A DNA stretch of 64,000 bases, taken from the IMG/VR virus record IMGVR_UViG_3300028601_000021, positions 64,001 to 128,000 of that record, one strand, 5' to 3'. A program made the translations under genes and the position numbers. Shown here piece by piece: positions 10,168-23,944 of the stretch. This DNA comes from a virus (lineage: Duplodnaviria; Caudoviricetes). Numbering within the stretch: position 1 is the first letter of the stretch; every line of letters begins with the position of its first letter. The notes under the pieces were generated by a model. It was not told the origin of the DNA. It worked only from the letters and a program-made list of their open reading frames with translations, and made no database searches.

Positions 10168-10175
10168 GTAATATA
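10168..10175 (-). promoter_or_regulatory. phiKZ-type early promoter TATATTAC
   Basis: Exact motif upstream of 9764-10069. Confidence 0.7.
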
Positions 10176-15200: not shown

Positions 15201-16050
15201 TACTCTACGATTAGAATGTGATAAGACATACACCATCTACAATAGCTACTCGCTACTGTAGATAGATAGGTGAATAACTGATAAAATACTATTTAAAATC
15301 TATGAGGATAATACTAATTAAGTAGTGTGTATTTTTTTACAAACAGTAACTATGTTATAGTTGATAAGTAATTATTATTAAGATAATAGTACTACTGACA
15401 AACTAAGCTAATTAAAAGAACTTATACTTAATATACAATAAACGTATTAAGTATAAAAAGATAAAAGAAATAATTTGATAAGATATACTGTCACTACCAC
15501 AAAGTAGTGACAGTATATCTATATATGAAATTTAAAGTAATAGTAAACAAGAGACTAGTATTTGATAAGTAGATAGCGAATGCTGATATTTAAATAAAAT
15601 AGTAATAGTTAGTTATGAAATATTTAAAGTTATTTGAGATACATTACTACTTATACTACACCATCTATGTTGTGGTATGAATGGTAGAAGAGATATGGTG
15701 TTTATAGAGTAATACTGAAATAATGATAACTGAGTGATAGCTAAGTGTGTATAACGTGATACATCATAACTTATATAATACATATATGTTGTGGTATATC
15801 TAGTAAGAGAGACAATAGATAGATGTACTACTGATACTATTTACGTTATTTAAAGATATGATAAATATACTTTATTTGTTTATCTTTAAATATCTATAGA
15901 TAAGTATGTGTGATTTACTGTATGTTTTCTATCTGGATATTTATAAAAAAGAGATAGCAGTACTATCCTACTGAGTGATGTTTTTATATGATATAAACTA
16001 TATACTACTACAGCTATCACTTAGATAGCTGTAGTAGTATATGAGATATC

Positions 16051-16251
16051 TTATTTCTTTTCGAAGTAGCTAGCTGGATCTTTAAACTTAAAGTCCATAG
16101 CTTCTAAGGATTCTACCGTAATAGGTGTATCATCCTTCCATACCTTGATCAAATCCTTTACTGCATCTACACCATATTTACCTGCTAAGATCAAAAGCAT
16201 CATAGCAGTTTCTTTATTCATCTGCAGTGTTTTAGTTTCTTCAGTAGACAT
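16051..16251 (-). CDS. Small hypothetical protein
   Basis: 66-aa ORF coupled to the lipoprotein gene. Confidence 0.6.
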   Translation of the reverse strand: MSTEETKTLQMNKETAMMLLILAGKYGVDAVKDLIKVWKDDTPITVESLEAMDFKFKDPASYFEKK

Positions 16252-16258
16252 GGTTATA

Positions 16259-16819
16259 TTACTCCTGGATTAAGAGATTAGAAATAGTATCAAACATAAA
16301 GATATCTGGGATATTGATATCCTTACCTGTGATACCACTATAGGTCTTAGCTACTTCATCTTTCATTTTATAAAAAGACTTAGCTGAGAGTACTAGAGTA
16401 TTGATGAGTTTATCTTTAGTGCTATCTGCTGACATCTTATCTGCATACATATAGGAAGTAAGAGCTGCTCTAGCTAAGTTCTGATTGGTACGTACTACGT
16501 CACCTACTTTAATGAGAGTGACTTTCTGTTCTTCAGTGATGACACCTTCAGTATAGAGATCACCTAAGATCTTAAAGGACATATCAGCTACGATATCGAT
16601 AGACTTGATAGTCTTTACAGAGTTAAGTATAAGTACTTCATCTAACTGAGGTTCGGCTACTTCGACCGTGGTAGCGTTAGTGGTATCCACTACTACAGTA
16701 TCGGTAGTAGTGTTAGCCGGTACTTCAGCTTGTTTATTAGAACAAGCAAAGAGCATAGCTAGGATCATAAAACCCAACATAGCTTTTAAAGTCCAGATAG
16801 AGATAAATTTCTTACACAT
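16259..16819 (-). CDS. Lipoprotein
   Basis: Hydrophobic signal with lipobox LFAC, Thr-rich linker and helical domain. Confidence 0.7.
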   Translation of the reverse strand: MCKKFISIWTLKAMLGFMILAMLFACSNKQAEVPANTTTDTVVVDTTNATTVEVAEPQLDEVLILNSVKTIKSIDIVADMSFKILGDLYTEGVITEEQKVTLIKVGDVVRTNQNLARAALTSYMYADKMSADSTKDKLINTLVLSAKSFYKMKDEVAKTYSGITGKDINIPDIFMFDTISNLLIQE

Positions 16820-16877: not shown

Positions 16878-17843
16878 TCATAGTGTCAGTGACCACTTAC
16901 GATAGGTAGGTATACCTTTTATGATATCATGTAATATGCGACTATCTGGTGTAGTATCTACAGGTACTTCATAAGCTATAGATTTTAATGTGGGTACTAC
17001 TTTCAGTAAAGTATCACACAACTTTTTAGTCATGGTATCTATGGCTATTAAAGTTTTAGAAGTACTATATACATTAGCCATAGTCAACCAACGTATGTCA
17101 TCATTGCTGTATAGTTGATCTTCTATCATTTTTATACTTAAGTAAGGATCATCTAATCTTGTATCCATGAGAGATATCCTTTTATATAACTTGTGTTTAA
17201 TACCGGCTTTAGTGGCGATATGATCTATATATGGAGAAGGATCAGTAGCGATAAGTTTTAGATCTATACCAGGATAGTGTTTCACTTTATGATCTTTAGC
17301 TCTATCGAATAGGTCATCTATAGGTGTTATGTGGAAAGTACTAGTGTGACTATATCCCAATCTTTCATATATCGTATCTATAGGAGTATCACCTACTTTC
17401 GTACCTACTACGGTATGTAGACGAAATTCATCTACTTCCGTTAGCTTAATTAGATAATTATGTATATTTTTAAATATACCTTTATTTCTATAACTAGGAG
17501 CTACATATATACCTTCTATCGTAGAATACGAGGAAAATGGTGTAGTCTTTATGAATGCTATAGCTATCAGATCATCCGTATCTAGATCTATCACACCATA
17601 TAACTTAGTAGCTCCTTTAAAAGGATTATCTAATCTATATCTTATCCATTCAGATAAATCCTTTTTAGAAACGAGATATCTGTCGTGGTGGTATAGGTGA
17701 GCATGTTTAGCCACTGTAAGATGATCAGATTCCAGATGGGTATCCATAGCTTTGGCTATAGGTAGATATTTTAGTATTTGTTCTCTGGTGAAATGATGTA
17801 TAGGAGGATATATCTGTCCTAAGATAAGATTATTTGGTAACAT
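16878..17843 (-). CDS. GNAT-family acetyltransferase-domain protein
   Basis: IEGIYVAPSYRNKGI, YERLGY. Same size and layout as 11722-12675. Confidence 0.75.
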   Translation of the reverse strand: MLPNNLILGQIYPPIHHFTREQILKYLPIAKAMDTHLESDHLTVAKHAHLYHHDRYLVSKKDLSEWIRYRLDNPFKGATKLYGVIDLDTDDLIAIAFIKTTPFSSYSTIEGIYVAPSYRNKGIFKNIHNYLIKLTEVDEFRLHTVVGTKVGDTPIDTIYERLGYSHTSTFHITPIDDLFDRAKDHKVKHYPGIDLKLIATDPSPYIDHIATKAGIKHKLYKRISLMDTRLDDPYLSIKMIEDQLYSNDDIRWLTMANVYSTSKTLIAIDTMTKKLCDTLLKVVPTLKSIAYEVPVDTTPDSRILHDIIKGIPTYRKWSLTL

Positions 17844-17934
17844 CCTTAAATGCTCCTAAAAATAAAATGATATAGTGTATTTAAAATAGCTACATGTGAC
17901 ATGGGTATCCCCTGTGTCACATGTAGCTATACGT

Positions 17935-19026
17935 TTAAGGTTTCCAATTAACAGTAGAAGCTTCTTCTTTGTTTCTAGCTATGATGTATTTAGCCATAGC
18001 TATAGCTGATTCCTTGGTATTCGTATAGGTCACGAATCCATTTCTGTGACAGTACTTCACATCGTCGATACCTGTATTCTCATAGATCTCCTTAGTCGAT
18101 AGACCTCTGATCTCTATAGGAGCAGGACAACGAAGACTAAAGCTACGACCAGGATGTACTGGTAGACTATGGATAGCCCAAGCTGCATCTTCTTCATCTT
18201 CTGAGGAAGAGATGATGAGCTGATACTTATCCAAGATATCCCATTTAGACCAGAGCATATCCTTCCAAGGTATATCCTGGGGTATAAAGAGATATTCTAC
18301 ATCATCACTGCTTTTACTGGTCTCTTCCAGATACTTTCCACCCACAGAGATCAATAGTTCTGTTTCTATATAGTTTCTGAACCATTGATAGGTAGAGAGT
18401 AGACAAGCTAAGAAATGCTTATTGTATTCCATAGGCATATTCTTAAATCTGTGTCTGGTAGGATTAGCATTTGCTATCATGTTACCGACAGCATTGGCCA
18501 CGCCTTCACTGGACAATTGACCGTTATCGGCATTATCTATCCTTTTGATAATCTCAGTGATTTTACCGTACACCTCATAAATAAGATTACCGTTTATAAA
18601 CACAGAGTCTACTGTACGGTCACAAATATCTTCTATGATATCTTGTCCGTATTTCAACCAAGTGAGACCAGCACTAGCATAGAGGGTACCGTCGGGATAA
18701 CAGATATCGAAATCATGCTGATGATGATCAAATCTGTTATTGACCGGATCATAGTACTGACCTACATCGATGACATAATCACCTTTAGTCTGCCAGTATC
18801 TATCTCTATTTCTGACGATATAGACTTTATCCTTATTCTTGAGTGGCCCAAGTAATAGCATAGCTATACCGAACACTTCATCGGCATGATGCCTACCTAG
18901 ATGAGTAACTATCAAAGGTAGGCTATCTGCTTCTTCGTTAGTGGGATTACTACCACAATACCAAGTCTTATCGTCTAATGTCAGTGTTACGGGAATCATC
19001 TTCTCCGTATATTTAGCCATATACAC
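17935..19026 (-). CDS. MYG1-family (DHH-like) exonuclease
   Basis: VTH..HHADEV, IDVGQYYDP..RFDHHQ, ASAGLTW, IDNADNG, YCHRNGF. Confidence 0.9.
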   Translation of the reverse strand: MYMAKYTEKMIPVTLTLDDKTWYCGSNPTNEEADSLPLIVTHLGRHHADEVFGIAMLLLGPLKNKDKVYIVRNRDRYWQTKGDYVIDVGQYYDPVNNRFDHHQHDFDICYPDGTLYASAGLTWLKYGQDIIEDICDRTVDSVFINGNLIYEVYGKITEIIKRIDNADNGQLSSEGVANAVGNMIANANPTRHRFKNMPMEYNKHFLACLLSTYQWFRNYIETELLISVGGKYLEETSKSSDDVEYLFIPQDIPWKDMLWSKWDILDKYQLIISSSEDEEDAAWAIHSLPVHPGRSFSLRCPAPIEIRGLSTKEIYENTGIDDVKYCHRNGFVTYTNTKESAIAMAKYIIARNKEEASTVNWKP

Positions 19027-19042
19027 ACCTCTTTAATTTTAT

Positions 19043-19621
19043 TTATCGTAAAGTGCACTTAACTAACTTTCTCCCGTTTACAAATAAGGAATGGAACCAA
19101 GGAATATATTTTTCGACGACAGAAGTATCATCGAGGTATTTCCTACGTAATTCCAAATAGAAAGAAGTACCACTGGGTAAGGTTCGGTGACTTATGATGT
19201 ACTTCAATTTCTTATCCTTCCAATCATAGATTTCCTTATCCGTGATCTTTCTTTCGATGATTTCGTGTTCCTTCTTCTCCGTATTGAAATCGTTGATGTC
19301 ATGGTGGACACGGAGATGGATATCCAATACTTCGATATGGAATAACTGGATACCGAACAGCTTACTGTCATAATCGCCAGTGTCGATATGAGTGATATCG
19401 TGTTTGAGAAACCACAGTATCTTTTTCAATTCACCTGCTTTCAGTAGCGGGTATCTACCGATGTTAGGTAAGCAAATAGTAATGTCCGTATCACTACTAT
19501 CTAGATGATAACCAAATCTACGGCTACCACATAAAAAGACATGATCTTTATTACCGATGGATTCTTCCAACATACGCATGAACATACGTACTGGAGGTGT
19601 GAGATGTGGATATCGAGTCAT
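19043..19621 (-). CDS. Pol-beta-superfamily nucleotidyltransferase, paralog 3
   Basis: FLCGSRRFGYHLDSSDTDI and DIHLRVH. ATG at 19621 overlaps the upstream TGA and follows AAGGAG. Confidence 0.8.
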   Translation of the reverse strand: MTRYPHLTPPVRMFMRMLEESIGNKDHVFLCGSRRFGYHLDSSDTDITICLPNIGRYPLLKAGELKKILWFLKHDITHIDTGDYDSKLFGIQLFHIEVLDIHLRVHHDINDFNTEKKEHEIIERKITDKEIYDWKDKKLKYIISHRTLPSGTSFYLELRRKYLDDTSVVEKYIPWFHSLFVNGRKLVKCTLR

Positions 19622-20265
19622 CACATAAACTCCTTGGGATGATGTAAGTAAGAGGTGATCCACCAATAAAGACGACGTAATACATTGGGATTCTTATCCA
19701 CGTATTGTTCTTTTAAAGAGTTATAAATATTAGCTCCTTTGATAGGATAATCTGAAGGATCGTTCAACCTATAGTACTTGATCTTATCGATGATACGTTT
19801 ATGTACACGTCTTTGTACTAGCTCATGTACTGCCTTTTCCTTTTCAAAGGTATAGAGGTCTGTATGTACTCGTAGGTGTATATCAAAAGCAGGTATATGA
19901 AATACCTTTGCTCCAGTATACTCTGTATCCCATCTATGTTCGACACTATTATCCTCTACGAGCAGTTTATCTTTTTCTATACCTTTAGGATTTATACCCC
20001 GGATAAATTCAAATAAGTCTAAGTAGAGGAGATGTTCTACTGATAGCTTTTCATTACCTACAGTTTTGTAGTAGATAGTGATATCCAAATCACTGTCGGG
20101 TAGATAGTAACCGAATCTACGACTACCACATACGAATACAGCTTCGGTGCCTAATTCTTCCTGTAGGGATAGTGTTGTCAGTATCCTACCCATGTCACGA
20201 GGATTAGTACAGGTCATGGTGGATAGTTTATCGTATGCTTTTGTGACTTGACCTACTTTAAGCAT
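19621..20265 (-). CDS. Pol-beta-superfamily nucleotidyltransferase, paralog 2
   Basis: FVCGSRRFGYYLPDSDLDI and DIHLRVH. Confidence 0.8.
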   Translation of the reverse strand: MLKVGQVTKAYDKLSTMTCTNPRDMGRILTTLSLQEELGTEAVFVCGSRRFGYYLPDSDLDITIYYKTVGNEKLSVEHLLYLDLFEFIRGINPKGIEKDKLLVEDNSVEHRWDTEYTGAKVFHIPAFDIHLRVHTDLYTFEKEKAVHELVQRRVHKRIIDKIKYYRLNDPSDYPIKGANIYNSLKEQYVDKNPNVLRRLYWWITSYLHHPKEFM

Positions 20266-20861
20266 GATTTGTCCTTTTTGTTAAAGAACCCAAAGAGTAA
20301 ACCACCCCAGTCTTTAAACCTAGCTATGGCTTTATCCTTGTATTTGTTCTTCAGGATATCGATAGCAGCCTTTCCATTATAAGGTTTTCCTTCTATCCTG
20401 AGATCTATTATATCAGATATATCGCTATCACTGATACATTTATCTATGAGCTCAAGTAGCTCCTTTTCTTTATTAAAGAGACGGAGACTATTGTAAACAC
20501 GGATATGTAAACGATGTAAAGGTAAATGAAAATAAGCTACGCCTTCATCGTTCGGAAGAAAGTCATCTAGATATTCTTCTTGTACAGTACGTAGAGTGAT
20601 TGTTTCCCAACTCGACATGTGCATTTGGAAACTTCTAAAATCAAAAGCATCCTGTAAAAGATTTAAGATATCGTGCATCTGACATCTATCGCCTGTGTTC
20701 ATATAAATAGTAATATCAGTCTCACTTTCAGGTAAGTGATACCCGAATCTACGACTACCATGAACGAATAGATGTTCCATTGGATTAACTAATTCTAATT
20801 GCAGTCCACTGATAACTGAAGCCGTATCTTTCGGTACGTACATAAATATATCTCTACTCAT
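20253..20861 (-). CDS. Pol-beta-superfamily nucleotidyltransferase, paralog 1 (ExD variant)
   Basis: FVHGSRRFGYHLPESETDI and RLHIRVY. AGGAGG RBS. Confidence 0.75.
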   Translation of the reverse strand: MSRDIFMYVPKDTASVISGLQLELVNPMEHLFVHGSRRFGYHLPESETDITIYMNTGDRCQMHDILNLLQDAFDFRSFQMHMSSWETITLRTVQEEYLDDFLPNDEGVAYFHLPLHRLHIRVYNSLRLFNKEKELLELIDKCISDSDISDIIDLRIEGKPYNGKAAIDILKNKYKDKAIARFKDWGGLLFGFFNKKDKSCLK

Positions 20862-20925
20862 AAATACCTCCTTGATAAAGAGTAATGGCTTATATAAGGT
20901 TTGTTAAATATAACTTCTCATTTTA

Positions 20926-20933
20926 GTAATATA
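20926..20933 (-). promoter_or_regulatory. phiKZ-type early promoter TATATTAC
   Basis: Exact motif upstream of the nucleotidyltransferase operon. Confidence 0.75.
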
Positions 20934-21027
20934 TACTTAAAGTAAAGATGATAGACCACTCTATAAATACACAACGTAGCGATCCTATGTCTACCTTATA
21001 AATTTACTACCTATAAAGGATACACGT

Positions 21028-22362
21028 ATGTCCTCTACTATCAAAGCTTTATTAGAGAAAGAATTCCCTATAACGATCACTAAAGCTGTATTCCAGAATC
21101 TTATCCGTTATCTTATCATGTTTGAAACTAGGGATAAGAACGCTTTAGCACTTAACTCTCCTTACTTAGGAGTCATCCCAGTATTCTTTACTAATCAAGA
21201 TCAAGATATGTTCTTCGATATCTTTAATACCAGTGGTAAAGAATTCAATAAGTATCTTAAGAATAATAAGTTTGATAATTTGGTCATGGGTCTACAACGT
21301 GGTGAGTTAAAGAAACTCATCATAAAGCTAGATGCCGTCGATAGTGCTAGAAAGGTACAGTCTGATCCATTCAACATCTTTATTACTTACGTAGTGCATA
21401 AGATTCATACTTCTTCAACTAAGTCTATCGGTATTTCTGATAAAGAGAAAGAGACTTTACTACTTACAGTATTTAAGATCTTTCAGTATAAGTTCTTTAC
21501 TAGCTTAGTGAATCATCGCTTTAGGTATAAAGCAGATGAAGGTGTGATGCAAGCTACCGTCAATGGCTTATCTAATAAGTTTGCTATTACTAAGTATGGT
21601 ACTTGGAAGAAAGTCATCGAAGTACGTGCAGAAGAACTCATCTCTAACGATAGCATCCACAAGGACACTATCGCTAAGTATGATGACGATGGTAAGATCC
21701 TTTACCTTATCACTGATATCCAGACTAGGATACGTAATCAGATCAATATCGTTACTTCAGCTTATTATGTCAAGAAAGAACAACATGATGAAGTAGCTAG
21801 TTATGGTATCACTGGTAATGATATCGAAGGTGAGAAGATAGTAGTTAATCAAGTATCTGTATTTGACAGTATGACTTCTAATCTCACTAATGAGATGATG
21901 TCTGTCCATCAGTTCATTACACCAGAGTTAATTACCTTGATGTGTAAGATGCATACTAATATCCGATATGACTTGTTTAAGTCTGTATTGATAAAGTTCT
22001 CTGAAAAAGCCTTATTGCAGGCTAGAGCTAAAACTACGGATAAAGGATTAGATGAAGTACAGACGATTAACAATCAGGATACTTATTTAGGACTACGTAT
22101 TTTCGTAGCTAAAACTATCCAGAAATCGTACAGATATTGCATCCAAAACAACGTAAATATGAATAGCAAGGTAGAGATACTGAAGGCTATAAAAGACGTA
22201 TATAGCAGCTCACGTATCAACGATCCTAACATCCTTTCCATTAGAGATAGCGCTGCTGTATTTATCGATGGTTGTAATATTAGTCGTAGACCAGCTACAG
22301 TCACTTCATTAAAGATAGCCCTTATCCTTTACATCATCGTAAAATCCTTTAGATATCTGTAG
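21028..22362 (+). CDS. phiKZ-like conserved virion structural protein
   Basis: QYKFFTSL..HRFRYKADE, LSNKFAITKYGTW and DIQTRIR pattern recalled from phiKZ-like virion proteins. Confidence 0.6.
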   Translation: MSSTIKALLEKEFPITITKAVFQNLIRYLIMFETRDKNALALNSPYLGVIPVFFTNQDQDMFFDIFNTSGKEFNKYLKNNKFDNLVMGLQRGELKKLIIKLDAVDSARKVQSDPFNIFITYVVHKIHTSSTKSIGISDKEKETLLLTVFKIFQYKFFTSLVNHRFRYKADEGVMQATVNGLSNKFAITKYGTWKKVIEVRAEELISNDSIHKDTIAKYDDDGKILYLITDIQTRIRNQINIVTSAYYVKKEQHDEVASYGITGNDIEGEKIVVNQVSVFDSMTSNLTNEMMSVHQFITPELITLMCKMHTNIRYDLFKSVLIKFSEKALLQARAKTTDKGLDEVQTINNQDTYLGLRIFVAKTIQKSYRYCIQNNVNMNSKVEILKAIKDVYSSSRINDPNILSIRDSAAVFIDGCNISRRPATVTSLKIALILYIIVKSFRYL

Positions 22363-23262: not shown

Positions 23263-23823
23263 TTAATTAAAACAACGCTGCTTTAACCAACCCTTATAAT
23301 ACTTACGTTTTACAGGGTTTTCTAAAGTACGCATTAGATAATAATGAGCCTGTTCCATATTCATAGCTTTAGTGACGAATTCACCATGACCTTTAGCTAC
23401 TACTTCTAATAGTCTACCTCTAGTATCCTTACCATATCCACCATCGGTATCTAGATCTTTACCAAATTCATTCTTATAATTAAGAGCATTCAGTACTGTC
23501 TGAAGATTAGTAGTCATCGCAAAAGGACCTGGATTCACTATCTGGTCGAACATCTCTTCAGCTAATTCGATAGGGAGAGTAGATAAGCTATACTTGTTCC
23601 ACAACACATGATAGAAATCTACTACTGCTTCCAGTAAAGGACTACCTGTATTCAAAGAAGTATGGCCTTTAGCAATCAGATCCCATCCAGACCAGGTGGG
23701 GTGATTGGGTTTTGATATACCACAACAACTAAGACCACCTGGGTCATCAGGATCATTAGTCAACACCAGTCCTTCTATCCGTAACATCTTAATTATAGCT
23801 GCGTATACTTCGGGTTCTATCAT
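23263..23823 (-). CDS. Glycoside hydrolase family 108 endolysin with peptidoglycan-binding domain
   Basis: EG..NDPDDPGG..CGIS, FD..VNPG, DGGYGKDT, YYKGWLKQR. ATG at 23823 follows AGGAG. Confidence 0.85.
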   Translation of the reverse strand: MIEPEVYAAIIKMLRIEGLVLTNDPDDPGGLSCCGISKPNHPTWSGWDLIAKGHTSLNTGSPLLEAVVDFYHVLWNKYSLSTLPIELAEEMFDQIVNPGPFAMTTNLQTVLNALNYKNEFGKDLDTDGGYGKDTRGRLLEVVAKGHGEFVTKAMNMEQAHYYLMRTLENPVKRKYYKGWLKQRCFN

Positions 23824-23944
23824 GTTTATTCTCCTATAGGTGAAATGGATGTGTGCTATAGCATGAGTATACGACAAAAAATAAATTAATCTATTACTCC
23901 ATGTAGGGATAGGTAGCTATTGTAGCTACCTATCCCTGAAATGA

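Follow-up and report, generated by a model that had tools for sequence, protein, structure and literature searches.

We analysed a 64,000-nucleotide stretch of viral DNA (the window), which comprises bases 64001-128000 of a 156 kb IMG/VR record with a CheckV completeness of ~54%, and identified on its minus strand a compact operon in which three small paralogous nucleotidyltransferase (NTase) genes, NT1, NT2 and NT3, are followed by a gene for a MYG1-type 3'-5' exonuclease, a strong hairpin terminator and then a gene for a GNAT acetyltransferase (Table 1). The gene order, overlaps, shared motifs, C-terminal tails, promoter and hairpin listed in an earlier reading of the sequence (the original prediction) were all found, on the minus strand. 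NT1-NT2-NT3-MYG1 is predicted to form one co-transcribed, translationally coupled four-gene unit, since start and stop codons overlap and the terminator sits after MYG1. The GNAT gene, which the original prediction had listed after the hairpin, is not part of this unit: it lies beyond the conserved terminator and is missing in one relative (L002), so that the operon has four genes.

The record has a G+C content of ~37%, is 92% coding, and derives from an uncultured, distant phiKZ-like jumbo phage. This assignment is based on the matches of the gene adjoining the operon (21028-22362), which shows ~26% identity to 289 jumbo-phage records of the phiKZ, OBP and RSL2 type, and on further large open reading frames (ORFs) of the window that match PHROG families of tail sheath and virion structural proteins. 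At 23263-23877, on the minus strand, the window also encodes an endolysin that carries GH108 and PG_binding_3 domains, consistent with a Gram-negative host.

The start codons of two genes deserve comment. The likeliest start of NT3 is the ATG at 19621, located behind an AAGGAG, and the mechanical ORF call begins 45 nt earlier, at a TTG; with this ATG, the NT2 stop and the NT3 start have one base in common (TGATG). For MYG1, a GTG lies 16 nt past NT3 and an ATG, at 19020, lies 22 nt past it. The ATG is the likelier start, as it is better placed and gives a protein of 361 aa, as in the orthologues.

Table 1 Features of the NTase-MYG1 locus, with positions in the window
Feature	Position	Strand	Description
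phiKZ-type promoter TATATATTACT, preceded by TTTAAG	20925..20935	-	presumed early, virion RNA polymerase; supported by intergenic copies, conservation and published match
5' leader of the operon	20862..20924	-	first ~30 nt are TAAAATGAGAAGTTATATTTAACAAACCT, followed by an AAGGAGG ribosome site
NT1	20253..20861	-	202 aa; predicted small Pol-beta-fold nucleotidyltransferase paralog, E-x-D; acidic, pI 5.7-6.2
NT2	19621..20265	-	214 aa; paralog, D-x-D; start overlaps NT1 stop by 13 nt
NT3	19043..19621	-	192 aa; paralog, D-x-D; basic, pI 7.2-9.2
MYG1/UPF0160	17935..19026	-	predicted DHH-family 3'-5' exonuclease; PF03690 match, catalytic motifs kept
Intrinsic terminator	17882..17930	-	hairpin and T-run (RNAfold); kept in relatives
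GNAT acetyltransferase	16878..17843	-	321 aa; outside the operon; Pfam Acetyltransf_1, phrog_1249

Promoter, leader and terminator

The operon is preceded, 65 nt before the start of the unit, by the motif TATATATTACT. The 156 kb record has ten copies of it, all of them in the ~8% of sequence that is non-coding and each followed, after 5-176 nt, by a gene on the same strand. The bare core 8-mer TATATTAC (20933-20926 at the operon) occurs 8 times in the window, no more often than expected (10.3); the promoter call is stronger than chance because of the exclusively intergenic position of the extended motif in a 92%-coding record. The motif is unchanged, at -72 to -78 from the NT1 start, in nine related contigs. 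At the operon the promoter sequence reads TTTAAGTATATATTACTAAAATG, in agreement with the published consensus, which is TATATTAC for phiKZ and TTTRARR-BTATATTAC-DWHDGTG for 201phi2-1 (PMC7058600, Table 2). The phiKZ-type promoter of the original prediction is therefore backed by position, conservation and literature, and we infer that the operon is expressed early, via the promoter class of the virion RNA polymerase. No known family could be assigned to any of the other genes behind TATATATTACT, a picture that fits early or accessory genes, as those expressed early in jumbo phages typically lack a known family.

A wider promoter family, TATATATTAC(T), was also observed. In the whole record, 13 of the 15 copies of the 10-mer are intergenic, those on the minus strand of the window being at 10168, 20926, 27558, 59681 and 63677, and the downstream consensus T-W-W-W-D-T-G is similar to the published 201phi2-1 promoter. 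This family could serve to map the presumed early regulon of the phage.

The first ~30 nt past the promoter, TAAAATGAGAAGTTATATTTAACAAACCT, are almost invariant in an alignment of the nine related contigs, whereas the NT1 coding sequence has diverged much further (the window and L002 share 57-77% nucleotide identity in it). The conserved leader stretch holds a 5-codon mini-ORF (MRSYI-stop). Since L011 and L013 do not preserve this mini-ORF in the same form, it is more likely the promoter, the initially transcribed sequence or the RNA that is under constraint.

At the other end of the unit, the terminator hairpin (17930-17882) is of the 19-bp class, with a T-run and an RNAfold energy of -32.2 kcal/mol. 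It is kept in all relatives through compensatory changes, with L013 having an unrelated stem instead. Past this terminator, the relatives have 295-452 nt of conserved, T-rich non-coding sequence (L002, 9410-9861; L004, 3011-3322; L012, 3197-3491), compared with 91 nt in the window.

The NTase trio

The three NTases are 30-33% identical to each other and have in common the motifs GSRRFGY-x5-[DE]xD, FH(I/L), (I)H(L/I)RV(H/Y) and EK, the first of which, matching the hG[GS] turn and [DE]h[DE]h strand of the Pol-beta superfamily, is unchanged in all three paralogs and in their orthologues. In Pfam, NT2 matches NTP_transf_2 (E 6e-6, 27 bits vs a cut-off of 21), and NT1 and NT3 give sub-threshold Polbeta matches. 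The AlphaFold2 (AF2) models of NT2 and NT1, with mean predicted local distance difference test values of 73 and 69, respectively, have a Pol-beta NTase fold, and every row at Z >= 6.5 in the fold searches with these two models is a Pol-beta-type NTase. The best solved match is GrpB (2nrk), with Z 8.9 for NT2, the maximum observed, and 7.8 for NT1 (145 and 148 of 165 residues, ~90% of the chain), values in a range that the tool flags as possibly reflecting a common arrangement only. Lower matches, at Z 5-7, include NF45/NF90, cGAS/DncV-like NTases (CD-NTases), poly(A) polymerases (PAPs), terminal uridylyltransferases (TUTases), TENT5, CCA enzymes and ANT/Lin enzymes. No Foldseek match in PDB or BFVD reached E <= 0.001. 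The modelled fold confirms the Pol-beta superfamily, and does not specify a subfamily or substrate. The original prediction of this fold for the three proteins is thus backed by Pfam, the GS...DxD motif, two AF2 models and the fold searches.

NT1 had been singled out for having E-x-D and lacking the third Asp. Both features were seen: E-T-D is present in all NT1 orthologues, and the residue preceding IHLRV is R or K in NT1 but D or E in NT2 and NT3. Nevertheless, the second is of little meaning, as this candidate third-carboxylate position is variable across the wider NTase family, in which H130 and K144 (NT2 numbering) are nearly invariant and G177 is also conserved. The E-x-D motif lies within the Pol-beta superfamily signature, and G-S, R-R, E-x-D, H119 and K133 are kept in all NT1 orthologues. 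Because E-x-D falls within the signature and the "missing" Asp varies family-wide, NT1 is not clearly a pseudo-enzyme.

The C-terminal aromatic tails of the trio are present and conserved. They had been proposed to be amphipathic and possibly membrane-tethering, a suggestion that we did not corroborate, since they are no more amphipathic than internal helices. No transmembrane segment was found in the tails; their short hydrophobic stretches (up to ~8 residues) and ordinary hydrophobic moment (0.2-0.56, not above that of internal helices) give no support to membrane anchoring, and this idea was rejected. The C-terminus of all NT1 orthologues (20253-20290 in the window) is K-[SI]-C-x-[KD], in which the Cys, third from the end, never varies, and a Cys near the end is also present in the NT3 of the window and of L012 (…CTLR), and is lacking in the other NT3 orthologues.

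Searches for homologues revealed a very small family. A profile of the trio retrieved 15 matches among 5.8 billion proteins, each one an orthologue of NT1, NT2 or NT3, and an exhaustive hidden Markov model (HMM) search of 1.84 billion cluster representatives only added proteins of 110-171 aa, at E ~1e-5 to 1e-3. A broader profile gave four extra proteins, one of NT3 type and three further short members, bringing the family to ~30 proteins in the databases searched. The short members share the diagnostic motifs GGSRRFGY-x5-SDxD, the (I)H strand, F-x-E-x-K-x-x-H and G-x-x-IY-x-x-L; they are single-copy, are located amid small ORFs without assignment on phage-like contigs, and have no MYG1 nearby. 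Specific to the trio clade are an insertion of 30-50 aa after the DxD strand and the aromatic C-terminal tail of 25-30 aa. By these sequence criteria, the trio belongs to a tiny, unnamed and essentially unstudied NTase family, seen only on phage-like contigs.

The MYG1 exonuclease

The MYG1 assignment of the original prediction was confirmed by a score of 171.8 bits to MYG1_exonuc (PF03690; cut-off 22.1), covering profile positions 2-315 of 318, and by an end-to-end alignment with the solved structures of the human MYG1 exonuclease (E 3e-22). Residues D100-H101-H102 and H327 are unchanged across the MYG1 alignment, and align to the human DHHQ and VHASGF motifs. The human protein acts on RNA as a 3'-5' exonuclease by means of its catalytic DHH motif, and replacement of its H344 by Gln shifts the specificity from RNA to single-stranded DNA (PMC6582341). 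The phage protein is therefore predicted to be a genuine MYG1-type DHH 3'-5' exonuclease, with its catalytic and RNA-preference residues intact.

Bacterial relatives, 27-32% identical, are found in Patescibacteria and marine Gammaproteobacteria. With a broader MYG1 alignment, homologues were also retrieved from 14 other viral contigs of IMG/VR (L121-L134), among which are five of 167-361 kb and two giant-virus metagenome-assembled genomes, with identities of 23-33% over full-length matches and 30-46% over four partial ones. Since MYG1 is present in these 14 viral contigs, yet was not found by tblastn in any of 50,697 GenBank phage records, it is a sporadic gene of large uncultured viruses. The linkage between NTase and MYG1 is observed in the close relatives, but does not extend further, as no NTase of the family was found near MYG1 in 80 bacterial and 14 other viral loci. 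Two NTase candidates directly downstream of MYG1, in L121 and L126, were rejected (weak HMM E-values of 0.08 and 0.28, no Pfam support).

Evolution of the operon

The synteny of the operon is identical in six contigs. In a maximum-likelihood tree the trio is split from the short members with support of 100/99, and each paralog is monophyletic on a long stem, which indicates that the triplication is old and predates the sampled relatives. All three copies, NT1 included, are maintained under purifying selection, with pairwise omega values of 0.08-0.24 for NT1, 0.10-0.21 for NT2 and 0.07-0.25 for NT3; the values for MYG1 are 0.02-0.12, and the NTases evolve 2-3 times faster.

Comparison of the operon (17935-20861) with L002, L004, L009, L012 and L013 revealed a gene-sized mosaic, with breakpoints near the gene borders. 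Between the window and L002, NT2 shows 96-100% nucleotide identity and NT1 only 57-77%, whereas between L004 and L009 the situation is reversed, with 95-100% for NT1 and 70-85% for NT2. This pattern points to an independent exchange of each NTase gene between related phages. Genes confronted with variable host factors typically undergo such cassette exchange, and the allele swapping suggests that the NTases may be among them; it argues mildly against a tightly co-evolved NT1-NT2 interface.

Genes downstream of the operon

The GNAT protein matches Pfam Acetyltransf_1 with 25.1 bits (cut-off 20.7) over residues 79-164, and phrog_1249 with E 1e-6. In the Atlas structural search it matches GNATs of 280-345 aa over its full length, with no clue to the substrate, and it probably has a tandem-GNAT architecture. 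Besides being altogether absent from L002, the gene shows 26-55% identity in the other relatives. Past it lie, on the minus strand, a gene for a putative lipoprotein of 186 aa (16259-16819), with a signal peptide and a lipobox-like LFAC motif, and a 66-aa ORF (16051-16251), neither with a family match, and then a terminator with a 19-bp stem (16000-16042). The pair formed by the lipoprotein and the small ORF is kept in L002, L004 and L009 (182 aa and 60-66 aa).

Proposed function

We tentatively propose that the four-gene unit acts on RNA 3' ends, a reading that we consider the likeliest of those at hand, plausible although short of probable. The NTases would add untemplated nucleotides to these ends, perhaps differing in the nucleotide or the RNA that they prefer, and MYG1 would shorten RNA in the 3'-5' direction. 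This could result in the turnover of host RNA by tail-and-degrade, or in the removal and subsequent rebuilding of damaged or blocked 3' ends, such as those of tRNA. This proposal carries the weight we give it because it alone makes use of all four genes, and because the substrate class of MYG1 is the best-anchored fact available. It is in line with the presence of RNA-specific enzymes (PAP, TUTase, TENT5 and CCA enzymes) in the fold lists at Z 5.8-7.0, and with the Atlas structure search, which favours MTPAP/PAP-like domains. A more specific form of the proposal, in which the three paralogs are a division-of-labour 3'-end builder, each adding a defined nucleotide or serving a defined RNA, with MYG1 trimming, seems to us a long shot. 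If true, it would be a self-contained phage system for stripping and rebuilding the 3' ends of tRNA or other RNAs, which would neutralise attacks of host defences on the acceptor end by MenT-type NTase toxins, CapRel-type pyrophosphorylation or 3'-end nucleases, and would represent a minimal, split and non-canonical counterpart of the CCA-adding enzymes.

A number of observations weigh against an action on RNA 3' ends. The enzymatic activities of all four proteins are predictions, and the early timing is deduced from a sequence motif. The fold matches are weak (Z <9), with RNA-tailing enzymes not favoured over GrpB, CD-NTases or small-molecule NTases, and the sequence of the N-terminal motif comes nearest to that of MNT/KNT-type enzymes, whose targets are proteins or small molecules. 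The NTases have only ~200 aa, no recognisable RNA-binding domain and no strongly basic character. No tRNA gene, CCA-adding enzyme or other RNA-end machinery was found in the 156 kb, a weak indication since these cover only ~54% of the genome. Furthermore, the linkage to MYG1 is confined to close relatives, in which a shared gene order would be expected in any case, and neither the single-copy members of the NTase family nor the other viral and bacterial MYG1 genes are linked.

The closeness to MNT/KNT-type enzymes raises the alternative that the NTases transfer nucleoside monophosphates (NMPylation) to host proteins, as MntA does on HepT, or to metabolites or antibiotic-like molecules, as do ANT, Lin and possibly GrpB, with three targets for the three paralogs and MYG1 as a passenger. 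The best sequence matches are indeed of this minimal type (PDB 2rff, E 9e-4; PADLOC PDC-S09, E 6e-4; MntA, weakly, E 0.006), the fold lists are topped by GrpB and also include ANT(6), LinB, ANT(2'') and MenT1, a size of ~200 aa suits these enzymes better than RNA polymerase-like NTases, and single-copy relatives of the trio exist without MYG1. However, these sequence matches are far below the family cut-offs and limited to the GS...DxD motif, there is no sequence relation to GrpB (hhalign probability <1%), neither HEPN nor another known partner was found nearby, and there would be no explanation for the tight co-transcription with an RNA exonuclease. We regard this alternative as rather unlikely. 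MYG1 takes the leading part in another explanation, a counter-defence against nucleotide-signal immunity, in which it would degrade linear or cyclic oligonucleotide alarm signals that the NTases bind, cap, extend or mimic. DHH enzymes such as NrnA, GdpP and Pde2 are known for cleaving short oligonucleotide signals and dinucleotides, CD-NTases and OAS/cGAS are among the fold matches (Z 5-7), and the presumed early promoter, the rarity and accessory status of the NTase family, its faster evolution relative to MYG1 and the swapping of single genes between lineages, typical of arms-race loci, would all suit such a role. Against it stand the lack of similarity to the described anti-CBASS, anti-Pycsar, anti-Thoeris and ring-nuclease families, with the PADLOC match being at motif level only, and an average omega that reflects purifying and not diversifying selection; in addition, the demonstrated substrate of MYG1 is RNA (PMC6582341), and the RNA-preference histidine is kept. 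On balance we find a counter-defence of this kind unlikely.

The overlapping start and stop codons, which imply stoichiometric co-synthesis, could also reflect a largely non-catalytic heteromeric scaffold, in which one or more pseudo-enzyme paralogs pair with an active one, as in NF45/NF90 or the GLD-2 partners, or regulate or localise MYG1. NF45/NF90 appear among the fold matches (Z 6.4-7.0), the conserved aromatic tails, specific to the trio, are possible docking elements, and NT1 has E-x-D without the acidic residue before IHLRV. Yet this residue is not conserved in the wider family either, NT1 keeps its other motif residues in all orthologues, as described above, and nearly identical NT2 alleles coexist with NT1 alleles that are only 60% identical, which argues against a tightly co-evolving interface. 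Such a scaffold seems to us quite improbable.

In jumbo phages, nucleus-forming ones included, most early genes have yet to be explained, and host takeover or counter-defence is the expected task of many of them. The operon described here is compact and cleanly bounded, and joins an NTase family seen so far only on phage-like contigs to an RNA exonuclease absent from the 50,697 phage isolates that have been sequenced. All of its components show clear catalytic residues, and their small size makes them accessible to direct biochemistry. If the editing of RNA 3' ends proves true, the operon would represent a new phage route to control host RNA or to repair RNA damage inflicted by defence systems, and if it handles nucleotide signals, a new anti-defence mechanism. 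Its value is limited for now by a narrow distribution, in one uncultured phage clade.

Comparison with known systems

All parts of the operon can be placed in known superfamilies. The NTase family, however, has been neither named nor studied, and the combination of three NTases with MYG1 matches no system described in the databases and literature that we searched. PHROGs has no match for the NTases or MYG1, and NCBIfam and PADLOC give matches at motif level only. The 50,697 GenBank phages gave no blastn match to the locus and no tblastn match to NT2, MYG1 or P0022, one of the short relatives; no relatives came out of pattern scans of IMG/VR, whether MYG1 by itself or the NTase alignment was used, and a literature search on MYG1, phage and nucleotidyltransferase found no report.

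The enzymes of the MNT/NTP_transf_2 type (PF01909; PDB 2rff, MntA) resemble the trio in their small size and in the N-terminal G-S-x-x-x-G-x(5-6)-S-D-x-D motif, and NT2 is above the PF01909 cut-off. In contrast with these enzymes, the trio has no HEPN partner, and displays the 30-50 aa insertion, the (I)H-L-R-V strand, the EK..H helix and the aromatic tail, with the match covering only ~45 residues. Membership of the MntA/HEPN-MNT type VII toxin-antitoxin systems was rejected: only NT2 matches the MntA model of NCBIfam, below the cut-off (16.5 bits vs 60, E 0.006), and family scans detected no HEPN gene in the operon or its neighbours. GrpB/UPF0157 (PF04229; 2nrk and the C-terminal domain of Mycobacterium tuberculosis CoaE, 6n39) is the best solved fold match for NT1 and NT2, but membership of this family was likewise rejected at the level of sequence, as there is no Pfam match and hhalign gives a probability <1% against 13 GrpB sequences. 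The fold match says nothing on function, because no enzymatic role of GrpB is established in the literature found (PMC2765170).

Two groups of larger enzymes have in common with the trio a Pol-beta core followed by a helical lobe. The CD-NTases and cGAS-OAS proteins are represented by CdnC, CdnE, CdnB and CdnG, at Z 5-7 over most of the model, the alignment including the N-lobe and only part of the helical lobe; there is no PADLOC match to them, and they differ in having ~300 aa and a full C-terminal lobe, and in being bacterial defence enzymes and not phage early genes. The PAPs, TUTases/TENTs and CCA-adding enzymes recur in the Foldseek, VIA and Atlas lists, but these template-independent RNA NTases exceed the trio two- to threefold in size and possess dedicated domains for RNA binding, with Z values of 5.5-7.0 and no match at sequence level. 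The trio was not assigned to the CCA-adding enzymes and PAPs, since the PolyA_pol head domain (PF01743) was not found in the 156 kb record, the proteins have ~200 aa with no extra domain, and the fold Z is only 5.5-6.6. The pairing of NTases with a 3'-5' RNA exonuclease nonetheless recalls the tail-and-trim decay and repair of RNA.

The phage MYG1 can be compared with human MYG1 (PDB 24ah series; PMC6582341). The phage protein is a full-length member of the family, and keeps the H-x-x-x-x-H-x-D-E, D-V-G-x-x-Y-D and D-H-H-Q motifs as well as the histidine of the C-terminal H-x-x-G-F. It shares only 27-33% identity with the bacterial and other viral MYG1 relatives found, and is phage-encoded and predicted to be co-transcribed with three NTases.

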